Positions 525-11,089 of a stretch of 64,000 nt of DNA are shown here, piece by piece; within the stretch, counting starts at the first letter, position 1, and each line of letters begins with the position of its first letter. Under the pieces are notes generated by a model. It searched no databases. It had not been told where the DNA came from and saw nothing but the letters and a program-made list of their open reading frames with translations. The position numbers and the translations under genes were made by a program. This stretch comes from a phage: the NCBI GenBank assembly GCA_033580375.1, contig GCA_033580375.1_4527.1; one strand, written 5' to 3'.

Positions 525-1689
525 CGAAATCTTCCATTTCGTCAAGGTCGTTTTCTATATCTGCTGCAGATGGAGCATCAGAAGTTTTAACCGGAACTTT
601 AGTTGTTGCTTTGCAATTAATAAGGTCGTTAACTGCGTCATCAACTTCTTTAATAGAAGAGATAGCGCCTAGTTTATATTTAGTTTCAATTGCATCTCGG
701 AAAGGTTTGTGTTTAAACAACGGTCCCCAGAATTCTACGCAATCAGTAGCTTTAGCACGCCATGATTTCTCTTCACGAATCATTTCACCTGTTTCTTCGT
801 CAAGGAATTCACGAGCATACCAACCGGCTTTAGGTTTAACCACAAAACCAATTTCAGTTGCCATTTCTAACAAGCCACTGAATGGGTCAATACCGCCATC
901 AAAATTAACCGTGATCGGGAAAGTAGATTTCTCTTTAACAGTACGAGATTTTTCTGCTTTCAACGTGAAGTCATAACCGGTCAATTCTGTACCTTCTTTA
1001 ACCTGACGTTTAGAGATAAAGAATACAGTGTTAGCAGAGTAAAGAATACCTGTACCACCACCCATAATCTCTTTAGGATATAGTCCACCGATTTCCATTG
1101 CTGTATGGTTAATTGCAACACATGGAATATCTTTAATAGTCAGATACGGGGTCACAATACGGAACAGAGATTTAAGTGCCTTAGCACGAGACATATCACC
1201 TACGACTTTCTCGTTCAATGCATCTTCGGTTTCTTTCTTAGATGCAGTATTACCGATTGAATCGATAAAGATAATAACTTTATCACCGCGTTCAATAGCG
1301 TCAAGCTGATTAGTCATATCAACTTTAAGTTGTTCGACGGACTGAATTGGTGTGTGAACTACACGGTCTAAATCAACACCCATTGAACGAAAATAAGATT
1401 CTGAAGCACCGAATTCTGAATCATAGAACAAACAAATTGCATCTTTATATTTCTTCATATACGCTGCAACCATGGTCAGCCCAAACAATGTTTTAAAATG
1501 TTTAGAAGGTGCAGCAAAAATAGTCAAGCCTGATTGCAATCCTGCATTCAGAGCACCACCTAGTGCAATATTCAACATCGGAATACGAGTAGGGACTTCA
1601 TCGCGATTATTAAACAGCTTAGACTTAGTCAAGTCTGCAGTCATTTTAGAAGTAGAAGCTTTAATCAGACGAGATTTTAAATCAGACAT
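517..1689 (-). CDS. uvsX: UvsX recombinase (RecA-like), 390 aa
   Basis: MSDLKSRLIKASTSK... with RecA-fold motifs and strong resemblance to the T4 UvsX sequence as I recall it; ATG verified at 1687-1689. Confidence 0.95.
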   Translation of the reverse strand: MSDLKSRLIKASTSKMTADLTKSKLFNNRDEVPTRIPMLNIALGGALNAGLQSGLTIFAAPSKHFKTLFGLTMVAAYMKKYKDAICLFYDSEFGASESYFRSMGVDLDRVVHTPIQSVEQLKVDMTNQLDAIERGDKVIIFIDSIGNTASKKETEDALNEKVVGDMSRAKALKSLFRIVTPYLTIKDIPCVAINHTAMEIGGLYPKEIMGGGTGILYSANTVFFISKRQVKEGTELTGYDFTLKAEKSRTVKEKSTFPITVNFDGGIDPFSGLLEMATEIGFVVKPKAGWYAREFLDEETGEMIREEKSWRAKATDCVEFWGPLFKHKPFRDAIETKYKLGAISSIKEVDDAVNDLINCKATTKVPVKTSDAPSAADIENDLDEMEDFDE

Positions 1690-1757
1690 TGTATTTTTCC
1701 ATAGGCATCATTATATTTTACTCATGTTTAAAAGATAAGATGATTATATACTAATGA

Positions 1758-1766
1758 TTATACAGC
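1758..1766 (-). promoter_or_regulatory. Candidate extended -10 promoter (TGcTGTATAAT, minus sense) upstream of uvsX
   Basis: Minus strand reads ...AAATGCTGTATAATCAT... about 75 nt upstream of the uvsX ATG; no clear -35 seen. Confidence 0.35.
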
Positions 1767-1788
1767 ATTTAAAACTTTAAACAGGCTC

Positions 1789-2337
1789 TTAACGAGCCCA
1801 TTTGATGATTTCTGTAATCAAATCATTACGTTCGCTTGCATTAAATCCTATAACTTTGTTAGCACCATCATGATTAAGTAATTGATACGTTTGGATTTTG
1901 TTATGAATTGCAAACTCTTCAAAATGTGAAATGACTGTATTAAAACTGAGTGAAGACAAAGTAATAAGATCGTCTTCAAAACTTTCAGTCATTTCGTTAC
2001 GTGTTAAAATAATTGTGAACACGTCATGGTTTTGGCAAAGACGAACATAATCCTGCTCATAAACATCAAGAACCGAGTCCGCATCTTGTCGAATACGTCC
2101 ATAAACCCAGTTACTAATATATCCACGGTCTAACAGATAAATCTTAGTAGGGTCTAAATAATTCAACATCGTTTCGAAACAACCAACTTCATTTCGAGAC
2201 TTAACATCGAAACGTCCATCAACTGTTCGTTTAGGGAAATCAATCTTTACATATCTTTCACTAATTTCCATTATGACATTAATGAAAGTTGTTTTGCCGG
2301 CATTATCTGGGCCATCTACTAAAATAATTTTAGCCAT
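1789..2337 (-). CDS. P-loop nucleotide kinase-like protein (thymidylate-kinase-like), 182 aa
   Basis: Walker A GPDNAGKTT near N-terminus and LLDRGYISNWVYG (DRY-type motif of dNMP kinases); ATG at 2335-2337 with GAGGAA SD; occupies the locus where T4 has beta-gt. Confidence 0.6.
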   Translation of the reverse strand: MAKIILVDGPDNAGKTTFINVIMEISERYVKIDFPKRTVDGRFDVKSRNEVGCFETMLNYLDPTKIYLLDRGYISNWVYGRIRQDADSVLDVYEQDYVRLCQNHDVFTIILTRNEMTESFEDDLITLSSLSFNTVISHFEEFAIHNKIQTYQLLNHDGANKVIGFNASERNDLITEIIKWAR

Positions 2338-2338
2338 T

Positions 2339-3235
2339 TTATTCCTCGATTACGACATCTTCGTATTTAGGTATATTATACGGCGAAGAAATTAAAGCAT
2401 TAAAGTAGATGAACTCACCAAGACCTGGATGGAATACTTCTTCAGGATTTTCGAAATATTGAATCTTCGGACGTCCTTTAAGAATTTGATAGTACTCAGT
2501 TTTAGTTGGTTTAAAAATTCGAATCAGCGCTTCTTCAGGATACTTATTTCTGTCGAAGCTATTATTTGGATCGGTTATATAAAGTGGTTGTCCTAATTGA
2601 ATTGCACATTCAACCACTTGTTCAAAATGATAACACGGATCACTAATTCGAAATGGATGAAAAATACCATCTACATGAATAGGAGCCAAATCACCTACAA
2701 GACGCTGCATGATGGAAGGACGTATAACTTTCTGCGTTACGATAATCTTATTATCTGCGCCAGCGTTAACCAGCACTTCTTTTTGACGTTCATTCAACAC
2801 AGTAGTTTGAAGTGAACGATTAACCGACAACATGTCGGTTTTTAAGAATTCGTCAATATAAAAACGTGGTTTATTAGGGTCTGCAGTGATATTGAAATTG
2901 AATTCTACATCAAAAGCGCCGTCATATCCAGTGATATCTGTGATTAGAAAATCACAATCATAATAAGCAATTAATGAATCAACAACAAATTCATTTTCAG
3001 ACCAGAAATATTTACGAGTGTTATACGCGTTATCTTTATACCATAATGGAACAAACTTAAATTCTGGGAAAAGACGTTCACATTCTTTAATATCAGATGC
3101 ATTACGTGGATATGTAATCACATCACCCGGATTAGCACGGTGCAAATGAAGTTGGAAGTTGCCATCCTTAAGGATAGCATACTGTCCAGTTTCATAAGAC
3201 CGCATACTCAAGATTGGTACGCGGAAAATAGCCAT
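2339..3235 (-). CDS. Hypothetical protein, 298 aa (beta-gt locus; candidate DNA sugar transferase, unproven)
   Basis: Long intact ORF, ATG 3233-3235 overlaps gene 42 stop (TAATG); no family recognised by eye. Confidence 0.6.
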   Translation of the reverse strand: MAIFRVPILSMRSYETGQYAILKDGNFQLHLHRANPGDVITYPRNASDIKECERLFPEFKFVPLWYKDNAYNTRKYFWSENEFVVDSLIAYYDCDFLITDITGYDGAFDVEFNFNITADPNKPRFYIDEFLKTDMLSVNRSLQTTVLNERQKEVLVNAGADNKIIVTQKVIRPSIMQRLVGDLAPIHVDGIFHPFRISDPCYHFEQVVECAIQLGQPLYITDPNNSFDRNKYPEEALIRIFKPTKTEYYQILKGRPKIQYFENPEEVFHPGLGEFIYFNALISSPYNIPKYEDVVIEE

Positions 3236-3951
3236 TAGTCAAGGAATCCTTTAACATAATCAAAATCACGTTCAAACACATGGGCACTTACCATGGTATG
3301 AGTATAATCACCAACTTCTACACCGCATTCGTTAGCGATATAATGAAGTAATTTTCCTTGGAGATAAAAATCCAACTGCATAACAACAGCACAGTTCTGA
3401 GAACGCATATGACAGTGGGTATAAAGCTTACCATCACGAATATAATAAGTCACTGAGTCAGTACATGGATATTCAAGTGTTTCATCTGAATCAAGCAAAG
3501 CCTGATCAGAACTTTCTAGAATTTGGAACACAACTCTTCGAGAGTTAGGTTTTTCTTTAAGTTCTTTTAGAAGAGCTGGTAATTGAGCCGCAATGCGAGG
3601 ACCATAGAAAGTGTTGAAGTTTGCAGGCAAAGCATCTGATTTTGGTTTAGAAATAAATTTAGCGACATTAGGATATGCCTTAAACGCTTCTTCTGCATCA
3701 GTACCACCGGAAATCATAAACTTCCAGAAGTCTTCGGCATATTCATAAGATATGCGATTAATACGTGGGTCGGTCATTTTGAATGATGATGGAGTGTCAA
3801 CAACTACTGTCATAGACCCAATTTCATTACAACGTCCAATACGAGAATCAGTTACGAATTCTGGGTTTTCTAAAATTTCACGATTGACTGCTTTAAATGC
3901 GGTTTGAAAATCTGCGGCTTTGATATATTTCATTGTGTTATGTTTTCCCAT
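3235..3951 (-). CDS. 42: dCMP hydroxymethylase (thymidylate synthase family), 238 aa
   Basis: Catalytic-Cys region CTDSVTYYIRDGKLYTHCHMRSQN aligns with the ThyA/dCMP-hydroxymethylase active-site block (T4 gp42-like); ATG 3949-3951 with GAGGT SD; synteny. Confidence 0.8.
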   Translation of the reverse strand: MGKHNTMKYIKAADFQTAFKAVNREILENPEFVTDSRIGRCNEIGSMTVVVDTPSSFKMTDPRINRISYEYAEDFWKFMISGGTDAEEAFKAYPNVAKFISKPKSDALPANFNTFYGPRIAAQLPALLKELKEKPNSRRVVFQILESSDQALLDSDETLEYPCTDSVTYYIRDGKLYTHCHMRSQNCAVVMQLDFYLQGKLLHYIANECGVEVGDYTHTMVSAHVFERDFDYVKGFLD

Positions 3952-4132
3952 GTTTACCTCAATACAATTTATTATATACTCAATTCGTAAAGCTTATTTG
4001 AATTTCTTGGCAATGTTGATATAACGTAAAGCTTCAGCATCGATACTTCCAAGAACACTATGAAGAAATGCATCAGCTTAGTATTCTAATTGAACAGGTT
4101 CTTTAATCACTTTAGCCGCTTTGGTTTCAAAC

Positions 4133-4152
4133 AGGCCCATAAGGGCCTTTTT
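4133..4152. terminator. GC hairpin AGGCCC-ataa-GGGCCT followed by TTTT on the plus side
   Basis: Perfect 6-bp stem read directly; T-run only on the plus strand, so function for the minus-strand operon is uncertain. Confidence 0.35.
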
Positions 4153-4229
4153 AAGAATTTGTTCGTTAGTGTTCAGTTTCATAGTCAAAATCTCTTCATT
4201 AAGTTTATAATTAAAAGCTTTTCTAGAAA

Positions 4230-5390
4230 TCATTCCGGGTACCTCAAAGCGTCATCAGAGTTAGTTATATCAATAATAGATATGGAGTTTTCTGCTAACC
4301 CGTTTTTAGATAATTGACGTTTGTAATATCTTTCACAATATGTACACGTTGACCCACAGATTTCATTAGCACAATCGAAATCCGGATGTCTGAACCACCT
4401 TTTTTCTAAAAAGCCATCTAACAAAGAGGTTTCAATATTTACTGTATGTGAAAACTCAGTCTCATTTTCAAGAGTGAAAATAGTCTCTAAAGGCTTCCAC
4501 AGTTCTAACAAATTACCTTCAAACTTTTCAGAAGCGTATGCTTCAAGAACTTTCAAAATGTAGTCTGTGCTACCTGTACGTCCTGAAACTTTGAATTGAG
4601 TGATACCAATATCATTATAAAGTTTCAAATCTTGAGGACGAACAAAACGAGTTCTCAGCCAGTTAAATGGGTCTGTATCACGAGCTTTAATGCAGTGTTG
4701 CATTGGATATCCATTTAAGGATTTAGCATCATCAGCGGTAACATCAGTACTATGGAAAATATAGCAAGAGTCACGATAACTACAATGTGTTGTATACCCT
4801 TTACCAGCATTAGAACAGAACTCATTTACAAGAACTTCAAATATTATATTGTTCTTATTGCAAAACTCTGCTGCACGCTTCAGGAAAGAAACTGAACGGT
4901 TCTTATGAATTCCACAGCAGACCTTTTTGATATTATATTGGTCATGCAAGTATTTGATTTGAGTTACGGCATCAACATGTAGAATTGTTGAAACTTCAAT
5001 CTCAATATCTTTATTGACTTCACGAACAATTTCCATAACAACAGGGTTAGCGATAGTAATACGCCATACACCTATTGACCAAAGATACTGAACATAATCC
5101 TGAATAGCTTTCTTCTTCCACTCAACTAGTTCTCTTTTTGAACCAGGATTTATCGTGTTGAGTGTATAGTTAAAGCAAATACCTAATTCGTTACAACGTT
5201 TAACATAGTCTTCTAACATTTTTTTGTCAACGTCAGGAAGCCTAAAATCAGGTCTGGCTGCTACAAAAGCCATTTCTCTTGTAGAGCCATATACTTCGTT
5301 TATCAAGCTATTAGGATAAGTTTTATTGAGCTCTACGATTTTATCAAGAAGAGCTAAATCAAAATTCGTTCCGATTTTAAAAGTATTCAT
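4230..5390 (-). CDS. Hypothetical protein, 386 aa; possible TIM-barrel / peptidase-U32-like, Cys-rich C-terminus
   Basis: Intact ORF, ATG 5388-5390; N-terminal pattern EVYGS...ARPDF...CNELGICFNYTLNTIN and Cys cluster NEFCSNAGKGYTTHCSYRDSC weakly resemble U32-family proteins; C-terminal CANEICGSTCTYC; first gene of the inserted block. Confidence 0.55.
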   Translation of the reverse strand: MNTFKIGTNFDLALLDKIVELNKTYPNSLINEVYGSTREMAFVAARPDFRLPDVDKKMLEDYVKRCNELGICFNYTLNTINPGSKRELVEWKKKAIQDYVQYLWSIGVWRITIANPVVMEIVREVNKDIEIEVSTILHVDAVTQIKYLHDQYNIKKVCCGIHKNRSVSFLKRAAEFCNKNNIIFEVLVNEFCSNAGKGYTTHCSYRDSCYIFHSTDVTADDAKSLNGYPMQHCIKARDTDPFNWLRTRFVRPQDLKLYNDIGITQFKVSGRTGSTDYILKVLEAYASEKFEGNLLELWKPLETIFTLENETEFSHTVNIETSLLDGFLEKRWFRHPDFDCANEICGSTCTYCERYYKRQLSKNGLAENSISIIDITNSDDALRYPE

Positions 5391-5448
5391 TTTTTTGCAT
5401 CTCGCGTTAATTGATGCGATGGGTTTTTTGCAGGTCTTACTTAAATTA

Positions 5449-5835
5449 TTATAGATTCGGTTTATACGATTTAAATGTTTCGAATTCGCCTTTATTCATA
5501 AGAGCTTTGAATTCGTCAGGACGCATAGCTTTGTCGTCGATAATCCAATCATATACTGGTTTATGTGTTAGCAAATTATGGTACTTCAAACCAATGTTTT
5601 CCAAGTTCTGAATCAGACTTGGGAGAATGTCAATTGCTATACGACCAGGACCTACTGACTTCATACCACGAGCAGTGTAAAGCGTTATGGTATGCCCTGC
5701 ATCATACAGGGCATTAATGGCGGTCACCATTTCGACGTCTGGTTTGAAGTTCGCGTAATCACGATTGTTATTCCATTCCGTGATGCAATCATCGACATCA
5801 AAACAAAGATTAAGCATGTTTTCTACACGGCGCAT
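5449..5835 (-). CDS. HAD-superfamily phosphatase, about 128 aa
   Basis: HAD motif I LCFDVDDCIT near N-terminus; ATG at 5833-5835 overlaps upstream stop (TAATG); ORF track start 5850 is an alternative. Confidence 0.7.
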   Translation of the reverse strand: MRRVENMLNLCFDVDDCITEWNNNRDYANFKPDVEMVTAINALYDAGHTITLYTARGMKSVGPGRIAIDILPSLIQNLENIGLKYHNLLTHKPVYDWIIDDKAMRPDEFKALMNKGEFETFKSYKPNL

Positions 5836-7520
5836 TAGATTCGTTCCCATTGATGAGTGATATCGCCACCGATTGGACGATAGGAAACACCAGTTTCTTT
5901 ATCAGTTAGTACCCATTTACCAGGATTTTTTGTAATCAGAGTAGCCGTTACAGGTTCTGCTACGTCATAACTAATAGAGCCGTCTTGAAGTACACGACCC
6001 ATGTTACGTAATTGCTTAGTCAGAAGTTCCATACCTTTATAATATGCGGCTACCGCTTTAAGTGGATTATTCTTGAAATAACCACCTAATGCAATCCAGA
6101 TAATCGCCACTGCCAAATGATGATACTCGTTAAACGAACTCATCTTTCCATATTTGTAAACTAATGGATTGATGTTAATAGTCACATTACAAGTTGTTTC
6201 GTCAATAGTAAACTGTCCCCAGGTCGGATTAGCATTGAATTCATCATAACCTGAAACAGCATAAAGCACTTTAGCTTCATCGTACAATTTTGGCCCGTAA
6301 ATCTTGGTTTCACCAAAATATCCACGAGGGTCGATAAACTTGACTTCGCCGTTATCAGTAATCATAGTATTACTGAAGTTCGGGTCACCGTGAATAACAG
6401 AGTACTGTCCCTGAGAACGGTTATGATAACGAATAAGGTGTTCTAAAGCTTGTTTCAACATTGGCTTCAGACGTCCAATCTTAGTGTAGTTCACATGTGT
6501 GATTTTACCAAATGAATCAATCAATGGTTGAATGCTTTCACAACGATCAATAACTTTCGTATAGAATTCTTTAGTGAAATCACGACGAACAGTTTCAGGA
6601 CTTACAAAATAAATGTCTGTGCTGAATTTCAGTGCATCTAAAATTGCATCAACAATTTGTGGACGAGCAAGACTTGATTTGGATTTAATATATTCAAATG
6701 CTGGCTTACCTTTAATGCGTTCCATTTCAAAGTTATTTTCATTAACAGAAACTAACTGAGGAACTGAATCTGATTTTACTTTCAAATACCATGAAATCTC
6801 ATCTTTTTGAAGAGCTCGTCCCTGTTCTGTTAATGCGAATTTAGTTACAGTTTCTTCACCAATTTCAACTGCATTAAAACTACGATTAAGTTCACGAACT
6901 TCATGAGCCTTTTCAAGTTTAGGCATATCACCTAAATCAATTAGATTCATAAGCTCTGATTTATTGAATGCACTGCCGTAAAGGAATTCTACAAAATCAC
7001 GTCCTTTACAGTATTCGTGAATTTCCTCGTCAGTAGAACCCATGTAGAATTCCCAGTCTTTGAACTGATAAATTCCTACAACATTACCGCCTGTTGAACC
7101 TACGTTAGTGATATTTTCACCATCGAAATTATATCGACATTCATCACCCTTAACATAGATTGCGTTAACATTCCAAGACCATGAACCAAAATCTGGAATA
7201 ATATCACACCAGTTAACAACTACGTTATGGCCGTCTAAATCTTTATGTAATTTAGCAAGAGCATAAGCAGAACCATACGCTTCATCAACTGTACGAATAG
7301 TCACATTGAACCCTTCTTGCTCACAATAAGCTCGAACAGTTTCAGCAAATTTTGAATGAACTACTACAATAATTTCATCTGCACCAAGGTCAGAATAAAT
7401 TGTATACAAATTGCTCAGAATAGTGTCTTGTTTATAGTTCACAAGAACTTTTGGAATATGGTGAGTAATTGGATATAAACGAGTTGCCAGTCCAGCACCA
7501 AGAATAACAGCTTTTTTCAT
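5835..7520 (-). CDS. Bifunctional sugar-1-phosphate nucleotidyltransferase (N-term) / APH-like sugar kinase (C-term), 561 aa
   Basis: N-terminus MKKAVILGAGLATRLYPIT...PKVLV is a classic NDP-sugar pyrophosphorylase signature; C-terminal HGDPNFSNTMITDNGEVKFIDPRGYFG is an HxDxxxxN catalytic loop plus D-x-G of APH/choline-kinase-like kinases; ATG 7518-7520 with GAGGA SD. Confidence 0.8.
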   Translation of the reverse strand: MKKAVILGAGLATRLYPITHHIPKVLVNYKQDTILSNLYTIYSDLGADEIIVVVHSKFAETVRAYCEQEGFNVTIRTVDEAYGSAYALAKLHKDLDGHNVVVNWCDIIPDFGSWSWNVNAIYVKGDECRYNFDGENITNVGSTGGNVVGIYQFKDWEFYMGSTDEEIHEYCKGRDFVEFLYGSAFNKSELMNLIDLGDMPKLEKAHEVRELNRSFNAVEIGEETVTKFALTEQGRALQKDEISWYLKVKSDSVPQLVSVNENNFEMERIKGKPAFEYIKSKSSLARPQIVDAILDALKFSTDIYFVSPETVRRDFTKEFYTKVIDRCESIQPLIDSFGKITHVNYTKIGRLKPMLKQALEHLIRYHNRSQGQYSVIHGDPNFSNTMITDNGEVKFIDPRGYFGETKIYGPKLYDEAKVLYAVSGYDEFNANPTWGQFTIDETTCNVTININPLVYKYGKMSSFNEYHHLAVAIIWIALGGYFKNNPLKAVAAYYKGMELLTKQLRNMGRVLQDGSISYDVAEPVTATLITKNPGKWVLTDKETGVSYRPIGGDITHQWERI

Positions 7521-7548
7521 GTTGAAGTCCTCATTGGTAAGTAGGAGT

Positions 7549-7573
7549 ATTGTACACTATTCTAGTTAAAGCA
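7549..7573 (-). promoter_or_regulatory. Candidate MotA-dependent middle promoter (TGCTTTA box, 12 bp, TACAAT) upstream of the NTase/kinase gene
   Basis: Minus strand reads aTGCTTTAactagaatagtgTACAATactcc...; MotA-box consensus and spacing from established T4 knowledge. Confidence 0.4.
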
Positions 7574-7705
7574 TTCATACTTTGCTTGTAGTCCAATCAT
7601 AATCCATCCAATTACAAGTGTTGGAATCATTACTGGAGCCGTTAAGCTCCAGTAGATAGTCATGACAAGCATCAATAGTAAAAGTCCTATTGTTATTGCT
7701 TTCAT
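7562..7705 (-). CDS. Small membrane protein, 47 aa (not in ORF track)
   Basis: Hand translation MKAITIGLLLLMLVMTIYWSLTAPVMIPTLVIGWIMIGLQAKYECFN; ATG overlaps upstream stop as ATGA (translational coupling); single predicted TM helix. Confidence 0.45.
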   Translation of the reverse strand: MKAITIGLLLLMLVMTIYWSLTAPVMIPTLVIGWIMIGLQAKYECFN

Positions 7706-8337
7706 TGCTCGCCTCGTAACATGGCACCTAGAGCACCGCCAGGGTGGAACTTAAGGAAATCATTAGAGGTAAATCCACGTTCAGACGAAAGGTTGATAGC
7801 AAACGTATCGATAAGCGCTAACAACAATGTAGTGGACATGGTCGGAGCTAAAGAGTTCTCGTCAACTTCTACCGCGATACCGGTACAGAACGTATAATCA
7901 AAAAGAGCTTCGTATTCTTGCGGAATGTCAGGGTTACAATGTAACAGAATCTGTTTAACCTGAGGACGAATCATACGAAGATGTTTAGCAACACCTATCA
8001 TTTCTTCAGTCTTACCAGAACGACTGATGTGAACTAATACATCATTAGGTGCAATAAATCCTGCGTCGCCATGAGAATAATGCCCAGTGTTCAAATACAT
8101 GCTAGGAATACCGAGTGAAGCAAATGTCTCAGAAGCTTTAGTTGCAATATTAGCATTCTTACCAACACCTGTAATAATTACACGACTTTCATAATTACTC
8201 AGTCCAGGGCGTCGAAGAGTTTCAAGAATAGCATTATAACGAGCAGGGTTTTGACTAATTACTTTGGCCATAGCGGCCAAAGAAGAAGCTTGTTTTATGA
8301 TTGCGTCAATAGCGATAGTAATAGGAGTAGTTTTCAT
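7702..8337 (-). CDS. SIS-domain sugar-phosphate isomerase, arabinose-5-phosphate isomerase (KdsD/KpsF)-like, 211 aa
   Basis: GVGKNANIATKASETFASLGIPSMYL...HGDAGFIAPNDVLVHISRSGKTEE and FLKFHPGGALG closely resemble the KdsD/GutQ SIS domain; no CBS pair; ATG 8335-8337. Confidence 0.8.
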   Translation of the reverse strand: MKTTPITIAIDAIIKQASSLAAMAKVISQNPARYNAILETLRRPGLSNYESRVIITGVGKNANIATKASETFASLGIPSMYLNTGHYSHGDAGFIAPNDVLVHISRSGKTEEMIGVAKHLRMIRPQVKQILLHCNPDIPQEYEALFDYTFCTGIAVEVDENSLAPTMSTTLLLALIDTFAINLSSERGFTSNDFLKFHPGGALGAMLRGEQ

Positions 8338-8377
8338 ATTTCTCTCATTTAATTAGTTTACCGTCCTTGGCATTATA

Positions 8378-11089
8378 TCAAAAATCGAACATATCGAATA
8401 GAGATGCTTTCTTCTCGTAATCGAGTTTCGCTGCTGATGTGAATCCTTCAAGTGGTTTAATAAATGTCTTCTCAAGGAGAACAGTGTAGTCCATCCAATG
8501 AAGTACATCATCTTTGATTAAATCAGTGATTTCAGTACCAGAAGGCCATGCGATACATTTATCACCGAACGGGTTTCCTTCACGTAAAGGCAGAACATAT
8601 ACTTTTTCACCTTCTACAACTTGTGGTGCATCGATATTACCTTTGATAGCCCGGTTATACGTCAGAATTCCACGAATATGGAACGGACATTTAGGACCAG
8701 GGAATCCACCTACATCATATTTAGCAATGTTATTCGCAGAAGATACCGACGCGATGCTAATATAATTCAATTGACGGAATTCTTTTTCAAACTCTTTAAA
8801 ATATTCTTGTAATGATTCTTCACCTTCTTGAAGCATACGACGAATACATTCTTTAAGAGCTTTCTGTACCGCTTTAGGAGTTGAAGATTTCTGTGTTTCG
8901 AGACCCATGATTTTGAGTTTAGGCTCAGCGTAACGAGTACCTTCCATATCCCACACGTTTAATGCATAACGTTTCTTACCAGTCCAGAATCCGCCAATAC
9001 CTTTAGAACCGAGCGGAGGACCAGCGATAGCTTCTCGGTCCATGAACATTAAGTGTTGTTTATTGTTCATGTATTCACACATTTCACGGAAACCTCTATC
9101 AATAGCCGGTTCCATACGTTCACGAGCGAACTTATCTAAGAAGTCTACCCAATGGTTGGTATCACGGAATTTAGATTCACCAACCTTATCAATAATTTTA
9201 TCTGCAGATACATAAATGGAGTCTGTATCACCATAAAGAACGAAAGCTTCACCTTCTGTACCACAAACTTCGTTCAGATATTCATTAACTTTACGTTCAA
9301 TCCACTGTAAAGCCATTTGCCCGAATGTTGTGATTGCAGTAGCATTACGCAAATCGTAATAACGGAACCAAACGTTTCCAAGTGCACCATAAAGCGAGTT
9401 GATGAGTAATTTACGGTTAATCTGTGCAGTCATACCTGCAACTTCAGTACGTTGAGCTCTAAACAACATTTCATTAAGAGATTTAGCAGACAACTTTTTA
9501 ATCTTTTCTTTAATCTCGTCAGTGAAGTCGAAACGATAATCAACATCTAATGGTTCATCAACAGAAAGATTAGGATTATGCAATGCCTCTTTAATTATTT
9601 CACCATTACGTTGAGCTGCAAGCATGTAACCTTTATGTTCTTTACGCTGATTAAAGACCTTAGTGATTTCGGTTGGAACTACACCATCACGGTCTTTATA
9701 ATACATCATGCCATTAGGAGAGCAACTGTACACATCTGAAGGACGTTCAGCAACAGCGTTAATATAATCATGCAATGGAGCTACTTTAAACGTTCCTGCT
9801 ATTGTTTCTGGGCTAATATTCACTTGGCGAATAATACTTGGATACAGAGATGTAAGGTCGAAACTCATTACATATTTGTATCGATTTGGAATAGGTTCCT
9901 TAACAAAAGCGCCAGGATAAGGTTGAACCGGGTGAGAACGACCTTGTGGAATCACCTTGTTCTGCTCTTTAAGGCTATTAAAAATAATAGCATCCCATGT
10001 TTTAATTGGGCTAAACACAGATTGAATCTGTATCTTAGCATAATAACCCATGTCCAAACTCAAGTTGATGAACTGACGCTTAGCATCAATTTGCAATACA
10101 CGATACACGTCGATAATGTTATAAGAAATATATCGTTGGTGATTGCTTTCACGAAGCTTAGAAATAGGGCCTTCATATTTCAGTTTACCAACGTTCAATT
10201 CAAATTCTGAAATGTAATCCAGAGAATACGACGGTTGATTGGTAAAAGAGAATTTTTTGTAAAGGTCAATGTAATCAAGAACAGAGATACCGAACAATGT
10301 AATGATTTCACGAGAACCATACATGTTTTCGATAACTTTAACACGAGTTTTACGATGTGGTGATAAACGTTTCGCAGTAGATTCGCCAAAAATATTCTTG
10401 ATTCGGTTATACACATATGGAATATCAAATGACTCAACGTTCCATCCAGTCAAAATGACAGGAGTTTTCTGTTGCCAGAAGTTGAGATATTCCATCAACA
10501 ATTCTTTTTCGTTATCGAACGGCATATAAATGATTTTATCAATAATTTCGGATGGAACTTCATCACCACCTTGTTCTTGAAGCTTAGCCGCAATTTCGAT
10601 AGACCATTCTTCCACATTACCATATGGAGAATTCAATAGATCAAATACGTAGAACCTGTCGTCAATTGAGTCATAATGGGTGATAGCATCAATCGGATGT
10701 TTTGCTTGTGACGGCTCAGGGAACCCATCCGGAGATGTTACTTCGATGTCGAAGTTAGCCACACGAATTTTTGTATGGTCGTATTTGATTTCATAGTTAT
10801 AAGTGTCAGACAAATACGCTAATTTGAAATCGTCCATGCCAAGTGCTTCAAGTCCGATATCTTCCATGCGTTTAATCCATTGGGAGGCATCACGCATATT
10901 AGCGAACAACTTACGAGTACATGGCTTACCGTAGATATCGAAATATTTCGTAGCCTGACTTTCTGGACAATGAGCAAACAGTGATGGTTTATATTCTACT
11001 TCACGAGTACGTTCACGGCCGTTAGAATCGATGTAACGTTCAAAAATTGAATCACCGATCTGTTCAACCGTTAAGTAAAATTCTTTCAT
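8378..11089 (-). CDS. 43: DNA polymerase (family B), 903 aa
   Basis: MKEFYLTVEQIGDSIFERYIDSNGRERTREVEYKPSLFAHCPESQ... matches my recollection of RB69 gp43; exonuclease (FDIE) and polymerase (YGDTDS) motifs present. Confidence 0.98.
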   Translation of the reverse strand: MKEFYLTVEQIGDSIFERYIDSNGRERTREVEYKPSLFAHCPESQATKYFDIYGKPCTRKLFANMRDASQWIKRMEDIGLEALGMDDFKLAYLSDTYNYEIKYDHTKIRVANFDIEVTSPDGFPEPSQAKHPIDAITHYDSIDDRFYVFDLLNSPYGNVEEWSIEIAAKLQEQGGDEVPSEIIDKIIYMPFDNEKELLMEYLNFWQQKTPVILTGWNVESFDIPYVYNRIKNIFGESTAKRLSPHRKTRVKVIENMYGSREIITLFGISVLDYIDLYKKFSFTNQPSYSLDYISEFELNVGKLKYEGPISKLRESNHQRYISYNIIDVYRVLQIDAKRQFINLSLDMGYYAKIQIQSVFSPIKTWDAIIFNSLKEQNKVIPQGRSHPVQPYPGAFVKEPIPNRYKYVMSFDLTSLYPSIIRQVNISPETIAGTFKVAPLHDYINAVAERPSDVYSCSPNGMMYYKDRDGVVPTEITKVFNQRKEHKGYMLAAQRNGEIIKEALHNPNLSVDEPLDVDYRFDFTDEIKEKIKKLSAKSLNEMLFRAQRTEVAGMTAQINRKLLINSLYGALGNVWFRYYDLRNATAITTFGQMALQWIERKVNEYLNEVCGTEGEAFVLYGDTDSIYVSADKIIDKVGESKFRDTNHWVDFLDKFARERMEPAIDRGFREMCEYMNNKQHLMFMDREAIAGPPLGSKGIGGFWTGKKRYALNVWDMEGTRYAEPKLKIMGLETQKSSTPKAVQKALKECIRRMLQEGEESLQEYFKEFEKEFRQLNYISIASVSSANNIAKYDVGGFPGPKCPFHIRGILTYNRAIKGNIDAPQVVEGEKVYVLPLREGNPFGDKCIAWPSGTEITDLIKDDVLHWMDYTVLLEKTFIKPLEGFTSAAKLDYEKKASLFDMFDF

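Follow-up and report, generated by a model that had tools for sequence, protein, structure and literature searches.

An intact AfhE-type nucleotidyltransferase/kinase gene in a Mosigvirus phage and its probable part in UDP-D-arabinofuranose synthesis

INTRODUCTION

The DNA of phages RB69 and DLP3 bears mono- to tri-D-arabinofuranosyl 5-hydroxycytosine; RB69 gp48, a homolog of thymidylate synthase (ThyA), has been shown to make 5-hydroxy-dCMP, and the DLP3 glycosyltransferases use UDP-D-arabinofuranose (UDP-Araf) as donor (Lee et al. 2026, PMC13326640). Two RB69 products, ORF53_52c and ORF055c, had been proposed to make UDP-arabinose (Thomas et al. 2018, PMC6024577), and the first of them, gp52:53, has been modeled as a nucleotidyltransferase plus a kinase, with the same structural neighbors as those found here (Lee et al. 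2026, PMC13326640). For phage HY126, the summary of He et al. 2026 given in Lee et al. (PMC13326640) describes AfhE as an arabinose-5-phosphate kinase, yielding arabinofuranose-1,5-bisphosphate (Araf-1,5-P2), and a UDP-arabinose pyrophosphorylase, and AfhF as a phosphatase that requires Mg2+ and turns Araf-1,5-P2 into Araf-1-P. DLP3 gp82 is the equivalent of AfhE and RB69 gp52:53. Here, we analyze a gene of this type, hereafter the target, which lies on the minus strand of a 64,000-nucleotide stretch of phage DNA (contig GCA_033580375.1_4527.1, hereafter the window) and encodes a single protein of 561 amino acids (aa).

We put at about 85% the probability that the target is the Mosigvirus ortholog of AfhE (RB69 gp52:53) and that, together with the products of two neighboring genes, it makes UDP-D-arabinofuranose from a host pentose-phosphate intermediate. 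The enzyme is already known, having been recognized in 2018 and characterized biochemically in 2025-2026 (Thomas 2018, Mahler 2025, He 2026, Lee 2026). Its role matters since coating every cytosine with arabinose blocks restriction enzymes and alters sensitivity to many defense systems, with a practical bearing on phage therapy and phage engineering. To this, our analysis adds an independent confirmation of the folds and invariant residues, the view that the logic is that of the heptose pathway and not that of sugar salvage, and the occurrence of the same enzyme core in whole-pathway fusions on giant-virus-like contigs.

RESULTS

The target is intact and orthologous to RB69 ORF53_52c

A preliminary description of this DNA, made from the letters alone, had placed a 561-aa open reading frame (ORF) at the target with a set of nucleotidyltransferase and kinase motifs, and both the frame and the motifs are exactly where it put them: GAGLATRLYPIT at aa 8-19, PKVLV at aa 23-27, HGDPNFSN at aa 377-384, and IDPRG at aa 396-400. 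A tblastn search with the target matched 374 phage records, 364 of which cover at least 80% of it, a protein database search returned 320 homologs, and the PHROG family phrog_4098 spans the protein end to end with an E value of 5e-295; the target is therefore a genuine conserved gene and no chance ORF. The homolog in Bas47/AlbertHofmann, annotated as a "putative enzyme involved in UDP-arabinose biosynthesis," is 99.1% identical to it at the protein level, and the Thanatos ortholog TH1_060 is 54% identical. The coordinates of the target, its domains, and its neighbors are collected in Table 1.

The window belongs to a Mosigvirus, that is, an RB69-like T-even phage. The genes around the cluster include those for UvsX, gp43 DNA polymerase, RegA, gp62/44/45, and gp46, many Mosigvirus phages match a 6.7-kb region spanning the target at 97-98% identity, and the gene order matches that of RB69 gp45-gp56, with the target lying between gp51 and gp55 in both. 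In the RB69 reference record (NC_004928, positions 6095-7781), the counterpart of the target appears as a pair of genes, ORF053c and ORF052c. When the target and this pair are aligned as DNA, the two run collinearly through all 1686 nt apart from one 1-nt indel, and the difference in length comes down to one extra C in the RB69 record and nothing else; identity is approximately 98% by eye, the 99% derived from program counts treating single-base gaps leniently. Resequencing by Thomas et al. 2018 (PMC6024577) showed that this C is absent, i.e., that it was a sequencing error, and that RB69 makes a single 561-residue product, ORF53_52c. The target is the ortholog of ORF53_52c, or gp52:53. A second RB69 gene is likewise split in the record (ORF046c/047c, NC_004928 2598-3498), again through sequencing error according to Lee et al. 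(PMC13326640), and its counterpart in the window is intact at 298 aa, so that the window holds both RB69-split genes whole.

The stop codon of the target, TAA at 5837-5835, is overlapped by the start of the gene for a HAD phosphatase, as the preliminary description had noticed. The extent of the overlap depends on which start is taken: an in-frame ATG at 5850 gives 16 nt, and with the ATG at 5835-5833, the start in the RB69 annotation, it shrinks to 1 nt (TAATG). The HAD gene is probably translationally coupled to the target.

Table 1. Features of the arabinose cluster in the window, and loci of the fused homologs
Feature	Coordinates	Strand	Description
Thymidylate-kinase-like nucleotide kinase (RB69 gp45)	1789..2337	minus	phrog_761; RB69 annotation; Lee et al. 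Table 1 (PMC13326640)
Putative first DNA arabinosyltransferase (RB69 gp46:47)	2339..3235	minus	Intact, 298 aa; phrog_3891
ThyA homolog, 5-hydroxy-dCMP synthase (RB69 gp48)	3235..3951	minus	Pfam Thymidylat_synt
Small ORF	4078..4233	minus	51 aa; position of RB69ORF049c
U32-family protein (RB69 gp50)	4230..5390	minus	Pfam Peptidase_U32, E 7e-11; weak UbiU match
HAD-IIIA-type phosphatase (RB69 gp51; AfhF type)	5449..5850	minus	Start 5850 (133 aa) or 5835 (128 aa)
Target gene	5835..7520	minus	Intact 561-aa ORF, ATG start; two-domain enzyme, AfhE type
Target, C-terminal tail (aa 511-561)	5838..5990	minus	Confined to T4-like phage proteins
Target, C-terminal domain (aa ~210-510)	5991..6893	minus	Protein-kinase-like sugar kinase, APH/choline-kinase type
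Target, N-terminal domain (aa 1-~205)	6906..7520	minus	Sugar-1-phosphate nucleotidyltransferase, GlmU/RmlA/MurU/LicC fold
Candidate T4-type middle (MotA-box) promoter	7549..7573	minus	TGCTTTA-N12-TACAAT; ends 28 nt upstream of target ATG
Small hydrophobic ORF, between isomerase gene and target	7562..7705	minus	MKAITIGLLLLMLVMTIYWSLTAPVMIPTLVIGWIMIGLQAKYECFN; 47 aa (36 aa from RB69ORF054c start)
SIS-domain D-arabinose-5-phosphate isomerase (RB69 gp55)	7702..8337	minus	Single-domain KdsD/GutQ type; phrog_5670
Fused homolog P0086	L002 8001-10781
Fused homolog P0119	L010 7001-9679
Fused homolog P0105	L011 7001-9361
Further fused homologs			P0088, P0089, P0091, P0092, P0096, P0097, P0104, P0107-P0109

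Two folds with invariant catalytic residues

The preliminary description read the target as one polypeptide that joins a sugar-1-phosphate nucleotidyltransferase to a protein-kinase-like anomeric kinase, and Pfam, AlphaFold2, and Foldseek all bear this out. Pfam NTP_transferase (PF00483) matches aa 3-99 only, with 39.1 bits against a gathering threshold of 21.2. From a 57-sequence alignment, AlphaFold2 produced a very confident model, with a predicted local distance difference test score (pLDDT) of 93.9 and a predicted template modeling score (pTM) of 0.91. The structural neighbors of its N-terminal domain are all sugar-1-phosphate nucleotidyltransferases, and this domain has no beta-helix; the C-terminal half is predicted as a bilobal kinase fold, and not as the non-kinase fold that would have spoken against the earlier description. 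MurU is the top Foldseek match. The tail at aa 511-561, which is missing from distant and fused homologs (these cover approximately 89% of the query), is modeled as short strands with pLDDT 83-90. When the PDB was searched by profile, heptose-1-phosphate guanylyltransferase HddC ranked first for the N-terminal domain, and no kinase was matched by sequence; the assignment of the kinase therefore comes from its motifs and its fold. Searching the PDB by sequence with the 561-aa protein gave distant nucleotidyltransferases only, with neither a near-identical structure nor an AfhE-like chain.

We assessed invariance over the 57 aligned homologs, which reach down to approximately 28% identity, together with 18 more distant, differently fused homologs. 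In the nucleotidyltransferase half, G8-A-G10-L-A-T-R14-L, K24, D106, and D195-L-G197 are invariant throughout; from what is known of RmlA and GlmU, we take these to be the G-x-G-x-R-L...K loop and the acidic residues that bind metal and sugar (D106, following beta-strand 5, and the D-x-G). In the kinase half, K227, E241, H377-G-D379-P-N-F-S-N384 (HxDxxxxN), and D397 are invariant, D397 being the metal-binding aspartate equivalent to that of DFG, and K227 and E241 being, by position and conservation, candidates for the beta-3 lysine and the alpha-C glutamate. The basic residues R213, K322, R326, R399, K417, and K488 are also invariant; they would suit a phosphorylated substrate and may line a putative 5-phosphate pocket, though this is suggestive only.

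Two other readings of the protein arise from the same comparisons. The closest solved structures for the two domains are LicC and LicA, which raises the idea of a choline (or small-alcohol) kinase coupled to a CTP:phospho-alcohol cytidylyltransferase, with CDP-choline or a similar CDP-activated head group as the product. We regard this as very improbable: HddC comes first in the profile search, the gene is always adjacent or fused to those for an SIS isomerase of the arabinose-5-phosphate type and a phosphatase, in phages a 5-hydroxy-dCMP synthase and glycosyltransferases adjoin it as well, and the phage DNA bears arabinose, not phosphocholine. The second reading makes the target itself a DNA glycosyltransferase, as proposed for TH1_060 with its "glycosyltransferase and phosphotransferase domains." CDD does put the N terminus in the GT-A superfamily, and TH1_060 is essential for Thanatos phage, but we give this reading scant credence, as the N terminus carries the G-x-G-x-R...K signature of nucleotidyltransferases and has only these as structural neighbors, no transfer of sugar by TH1_060 to DNA, dCMP, dCTP, or cytosine was seen, and the cluster encodes separate GT-B-type arabinosyltransferases. 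A sugar-activating nucleotidyltransferase/kinase of the AfhE type is the reading we retain.

Proposed pathway and order of its steps

Beside the target, the cluster encodes an isomerase for arabinose-5-phosphate, the HAD phosphatase, the 5-hydroxy-dCMP synthase, and a putative arabinosyltransferase. In the pathway that we propose, the SIS isomerase would convert host D-ribulose-5-phosphate to D-arabinose-5-phosphate, and the C-terminal domain of the target would use ATP to phosphorylate its anomeric C1 hydroxyl, giving arabinofuranose-1,5-bisphosphate. The HAD phosphatase would take off the 5-phosphate, and from the resulting arabinofuranose-1-phosphate and UTP, the N-terminal domain would form UDP-Araf with release of pyrophosphate. 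Phage glycosyltransferases would then move the arabinose onto 5-hydroxycytosine, made as 5-hydroxy-dCMP by the ThyA homolog, and so protect the DNA from restriction. The suggestion in the preliminary description that the phage makes its own NDP-sugar is consistent with the published picture of UDP-D-arabinofuranose synthesis for DNA modification (Lee et al. 2026, PMC13326640), and D-arabinose, one of the candidate sugars it had listed, is the sugar on RB69 DNA (PMC13326640).

Our analysis establishes the ORF with its two folds and invariant catalytic residues, together with synteny, orthology, and near-identity to characterized relatives; from these, we infer that the target also shares the step order and nucleotide specificity of AfhE. 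Structures in the PDB bring HY126 close to the window phage. Entry 9iqw ("Capsule biosynthesis protein," 134 aa) is approximately 97% identical to the HAD protein of the window, and 9iqc, 9ir2, and 9iqu ("Thymidylate synthase") are approximately 98% identical to its ThyA homolog; all four are probably HY126 structures (He et al. 2026), and at these identities HY126 would be a close relative. For the 561-aa enzyme, the glycosyltransferase, and the isomerase, the PDB holds no structure from the RB69-like phage group.

The order of the kinase and phosphatase steps is the only real point of contention. The alternative to the order given above is a free-sugar route, in the sequence of MupP, AmgK, and MurU: the HAD phosphatase would act first, turning arabinose-5-phosphate into free D-arabinose, an anomeric kinase would phosphorylate the free sugar, and the nucleotidyltransferase would make UDP-arabinose. 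The fold pair of the target is indeed that of an AmgK-type kinase plus MurU, MurU being its top Foldseek match, and MupP is a precedent for a HAD phosphatase ahead of an anomeric kinase (PMC5371407). Both routes have the same ATP and phosphate balance, and genomics therefore cannot separate them. We nevertheless think the free-sugar route unlikely and favor the kinase acting first, because the text of Lee et al. (PMC13326640), where it summarizes the HY126 biochemistry, has AfhE convert Araf-5-P to Araf-1,5-P2 and AfhF act on the bisphosphate. The order is further favored by HddC being the best PDB profile match of the N-terminal domain and by the phosphatase, which is small and HAD-IIIA-like, the subfamily of the heptose-1,7-bisphosphate phosphatase GmhB (an AFDB match to which is reported in PMC13326640). 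Chemistry would also fit: free D-arabinose would equilibrate mainly to the pyranose, whereas the sugar on the DNA is a furanose and the cluster has no mutase gene; arabinose-5-phosphate cannot form a pyranose, so phosphorylation of C1 with the 5-phosphate still in place would fix the furanose and make a mutase unnecessary. The many invariant basic residues of the kinase domain fit a phosphosugar substrate, again as a suggestion only. The earlier proposal of salvage through a free-sugar intermediate is thus probably wrong, since in the same summary the substrate of HY126 AfhE is arabinose-5-phosphate, which the adjacent isomerase forms de novo from ribulose-5-phosphate, and the HAD enzyme takes off the 5-phosphate after C1 has been phosphorylated, a sequence in which free sugar does not arise.

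Several points count against the kinase-first AfhE assignment. Table 1 of Lee et al. (PMC13326640) annotates RB69 in the sense of the free-sugar route, its HAD protein (gp51) being said to dephosphorylate "Araf5P to Ara" and the C-terminal domain of gp52:53 to phosphorylate "Ara to Araf1P." The activities of AfhE and AfhF are taken from the summary in the same paper, and they are those of the HY126 proteins, none being reported for the RB69-type protein itself; the likeness of the target to AfhE is judged from RB69 orthology, architecture, and gene cluster. The kinase half has no Pfam match above the gathering threshold, the best scoring 17.8, 17.1, and 15.8 bits, with fructosamine kinase, EcKL, and similar families among these sub-threshold matches; even so, PF01636 (APH) is matched at E<0.01 by 24 of the 57 aligned homologs. 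TH1_060 had no pyrophosphorylase activity on xylose-1-phosphate with any NTP, although this is probably the wrong substrate. Lastly, the PDB entries used (9iq* and 9ir2) carry no organism or citation, so that their link to HY126 is our own deduction.

Distant relatives and whole-pathway fusions

Marine T4-like contigs and a jumbo-phage contig of 350 kb carry homologs 35-37% identical to the target, in a conserved neighborhood. On these distant phage contigs, an SIS isomerase gene immediately precedes the homolog and a phosphatase gene or a small ORF immediately follows it, again with a stop codon overlapped by the next start, after which come genes for a nucleotide kinase and a ThyA homolog. 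The jumbo-phage phosphatase is of a different HAD subfamily (Hydrolase_3), and the phosphatase step has therefore been kept even where the protein was replaced. A gene for a Flavodoxin_2 protein (NAD(P)H-dependent flavin reductase-like) adjoins or lies near the ThyA homolog at three of these loci (L007 524-1819; L008 2368-2892 and 8086-8997; L009 1245-1748), which would agree with RB69 gp48 being, as reported, a flavin-dependent hydroxylase; the cluster in the window has no such gene.

Other relatives carry the pathway in one chain. Fusions in the order HAD-SIS-nucleotidyltransferase-kinase form single polypeptides of 890-955 aa, which independently ties the four activities to one pathway, and other fused homologs of approximately 790 aa have an extra C-terminal region of approximately 260 aa that weakly resembles a mannose-6-phosphate-isomerase/cupin domain. 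The fused homologs are 27-35% identical to the target, with the catalytic and basic residues all retained. Their contigs are giant-virus-like, and the genes beside them encode MutS7-HNH, Rpb2, Rpb10, a Ski2-like helicase, and a RING finger protein, with NDP-sugar epimerase and GT2 genes also among their neighbors; one of the fused homologs, P0091, is a EukProt transcript and so eukaryotic. Since no ThyA homolog is found near them, their role is probably in glycan synthesis and not in DNA modification. The only fusion noted by Thomas et al. 2018 (PMC6024577) was a bacterial one (Butyrivibrio) with an SIS domain, and in the literature examined we found no description of whole-pathway fusions on giant-virus-like contigs. 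We tentatively raise the possibility that the nucleotidyltransferase/kinase is the core of a widespread viral module that turns a sugar phosphate into a 1,n-bisphosphate and then an NDP-sugar, beyond phage DNA arabinosylation. If so, the product of the fusions, NDP-D-arabinofuranose or the activated form of a related pentose or heptose, would go into glycans of the capsid or fibrils and not onto DNA.

Cluster neighbors and expression signals

All genes of the cluster are on the minus strand. The HAD protein has no Pfam match; it matches NCBIfam TIGR01689 ("capsule biosynthesis phosphatase") with an E value of 1.3e-13, below the family cutoff, and PDB 1xpj with 9e-11. The function proposed for it, arabinose-1,5-bisphosphate 5-phosphatase, is that of AfhF in the summary of He et al. 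by Lee et al. (PMC13326640). The RefSeq name of its RB69 counterpart gp51, "phosphoheptose isomerase," is a misannotation that has spread to PHROGs. The isomerase matches Pfam SIS (E 1e-9), PDB 3etn (E 1e-24) and 2xhz (E 2e-18), and NCBIfam KpsF/GutQ (E 9e-32) and KdsD (E 4e-30), the last two both under their equivalog cutoffs. The ATG of the small, very hydrophobic ORF downstream of it overlaps the isomerase stop codon (ATGA); this ORF is the counterpart of RB69ORF054c, which carries the note "similar to T4 42-imm intercistronic region" in the RB69 record, and its product is probably a membrane peptide. The putative arabinosyltransferase has neither a Pfam nor a PDB sequence match, and it was assigned through the structure matches that Lee et al. 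list in their Table 1 (PMC13326640); the same authors label the U32 protein a "sugar or heterocycle reductase."

The target has a GAGG ribosome-binding site 8 nt upstream of its ATG, and the candidate middle promoter listed in Table 1 also lies upstream of that start codon. Against an expectation of 3.6, the window has 12 copies of the pattern TGCTTNA-N11-13-TANNNT, the MotA-box consensus of T4, and 10 of them are on the coding (minus) strand. Another such site, at 2375-2399, falls within the 3' end of the glycosyltransferase gene, directly upstream of the kinase-like gene. Scans of 1600-8500 for sigma-70 promoters and intrinsic terminators showed no enrichment over shuffled sequences.

Conservation of the U32-family protein

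The U32 protein of the cluster is found in 222 phage records, at an identity of at least 82% in all of them. The nucleotidyltransferase/kinase falls to 43-54% in some phages that share this conserved U32 protein: in Klebsiella phages the U32 protein is 86% identical as against 43.5% for the nucleotidyltransferase/kinase, and in Thanatos phages the figures are 82% (Thanatos-2) and 54% (Thanatos-1), respectively. The hosts of U32-bearing phages (Escherichia, Klebsiella, Serratia, Yersinia, Proteus, Shewanella, and others) are all facultative anaerobes, and the U32 search returned 0 matches from Acinetobacter phages, though 57 Acinetobacter phage records have the nucleotidyltransferase/kinase. 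U32 proteins include O2-independent hydroxylases, such as RlhA (5-hydroxycytidine in rRNA), TrhP, and UbiU/V, whereas the published 5-hydroxy-dCMP synthase requires flavin and O2; because of this difference, the U32 protein could be an anaerobic route to 5-hydroxycytosine. As a caveat to this idea, approximately 40 Escherichia phage records (JS98-like) have the nucleotidyltransferase/kinase and apparently no U32 protein.

DISCUSSION

Several described systems make an activated sugar with a comparable set of enzymes, and the preliminary description likened the target to two of them. The first, FKP, resembles it, as do related arabinokinase/pyrophosphorylases, in being bifunctional, with an N-terminal pyrophosphorylase, a C-terminal anomeric kinase, and an NDP-sugar product. 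This comparison fails at the level of fold: FKP has a GHMP-fold kinase as well as a left-handed beta-helix with its N-terminal domain (PMC6468028), neither of which is found in the target, and it works on free fucose. The target is thus no member of the FKP family, and in the kinase half the two are alike by convergence, not by homology.

The comparison with AmgK and MurU holds in part. The MupP/AmgK/MurU system, which recycles N-acetylmuramic acid in Pseudomonas, also combines a protein-kinase-like anomeric kinase with a minimal GlmU-type uridylyltransferase, needs a HAD phosphatase, and ends in a UDP-sugar (PMC5371407), and at the level of fold the likeness stands. The target is not an ortholog of these enzymes: its score against NCBIfam MurU (NF045761) is 24.9 where the cutoff is 250, and the substrate reported for its family, in the HY126 summary of Lee et al., is a pentose 5-phosphate and not a free amino sugar. 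The order of steps is also probably different, the Pseudomonas phosphatase acting first to leave a free-sugar intermediate; moreover, that system consists of three separate proteins where the phage has two of the activities fused, and it salvages cell-wall turnover products, whereas the phage would synthesize its sugar de novo from ribulose-5-phosphate.

LicA and LicC, choline kinase and CTP:phosphocholine cytidylyltransferase, are the nearest relatives in solved structure for both domains of the target, but they are separate proteins with a non-sugar substrate and another genomic context.

In the pathways to ADP- and GDP-heptose, GmhA is an SIS isomerase, HldE or HddA provides the kinase, GmhB is a HAD-IIIA phosphatase, and the HldE adenylyltransferase or HddC completes the nucleotide sugar. 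The four-step logic is identical to that proposed here, running from a ketose-phosphate isomerase through an anomeric kinase acting on a sugar phosphate and removal of the distal phosphate to a nucleotidyltransferase. HldE is also a kinase/nucleotidyltransferase fusion, the N-terminal domain of the target is HddC-like, and the phage phosphatase is HAD-IIIA-like. The substrate of the phage enzymes is a pentose instead of a heptose, with a furanose UDP-sugar destined for DNA and not for lipopolysaccharide, and the phage kinase is protein-kinase-like where that of HldE is PfkB and that of HddA GHMP. The HldE adenylyltransferase has a different, cytidylyltransferase-like fold in place of the GlmU/RmlA-type fold of the target; with neither of its domains of the HldE kind, the target is not an HldE-type enzyme.

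The closest match remains AfhE of HY126, with RB69 gp52:53 and DLP3 gp82. These have the same N-terminal nucleotidyltransferase and C-terminal kinase in approximately 560 aa and the same cluster of isomerase, HAD phosphatase, ThyA homolog, and glycosyltransferase genes. We found no substantive difference between them and the target other than that the latter is intact where the RB69 record is artificially split (the HY126 AfhE sequence itself was not compared), and the target is a member of the AfhE/RB69 gp52:53 family.

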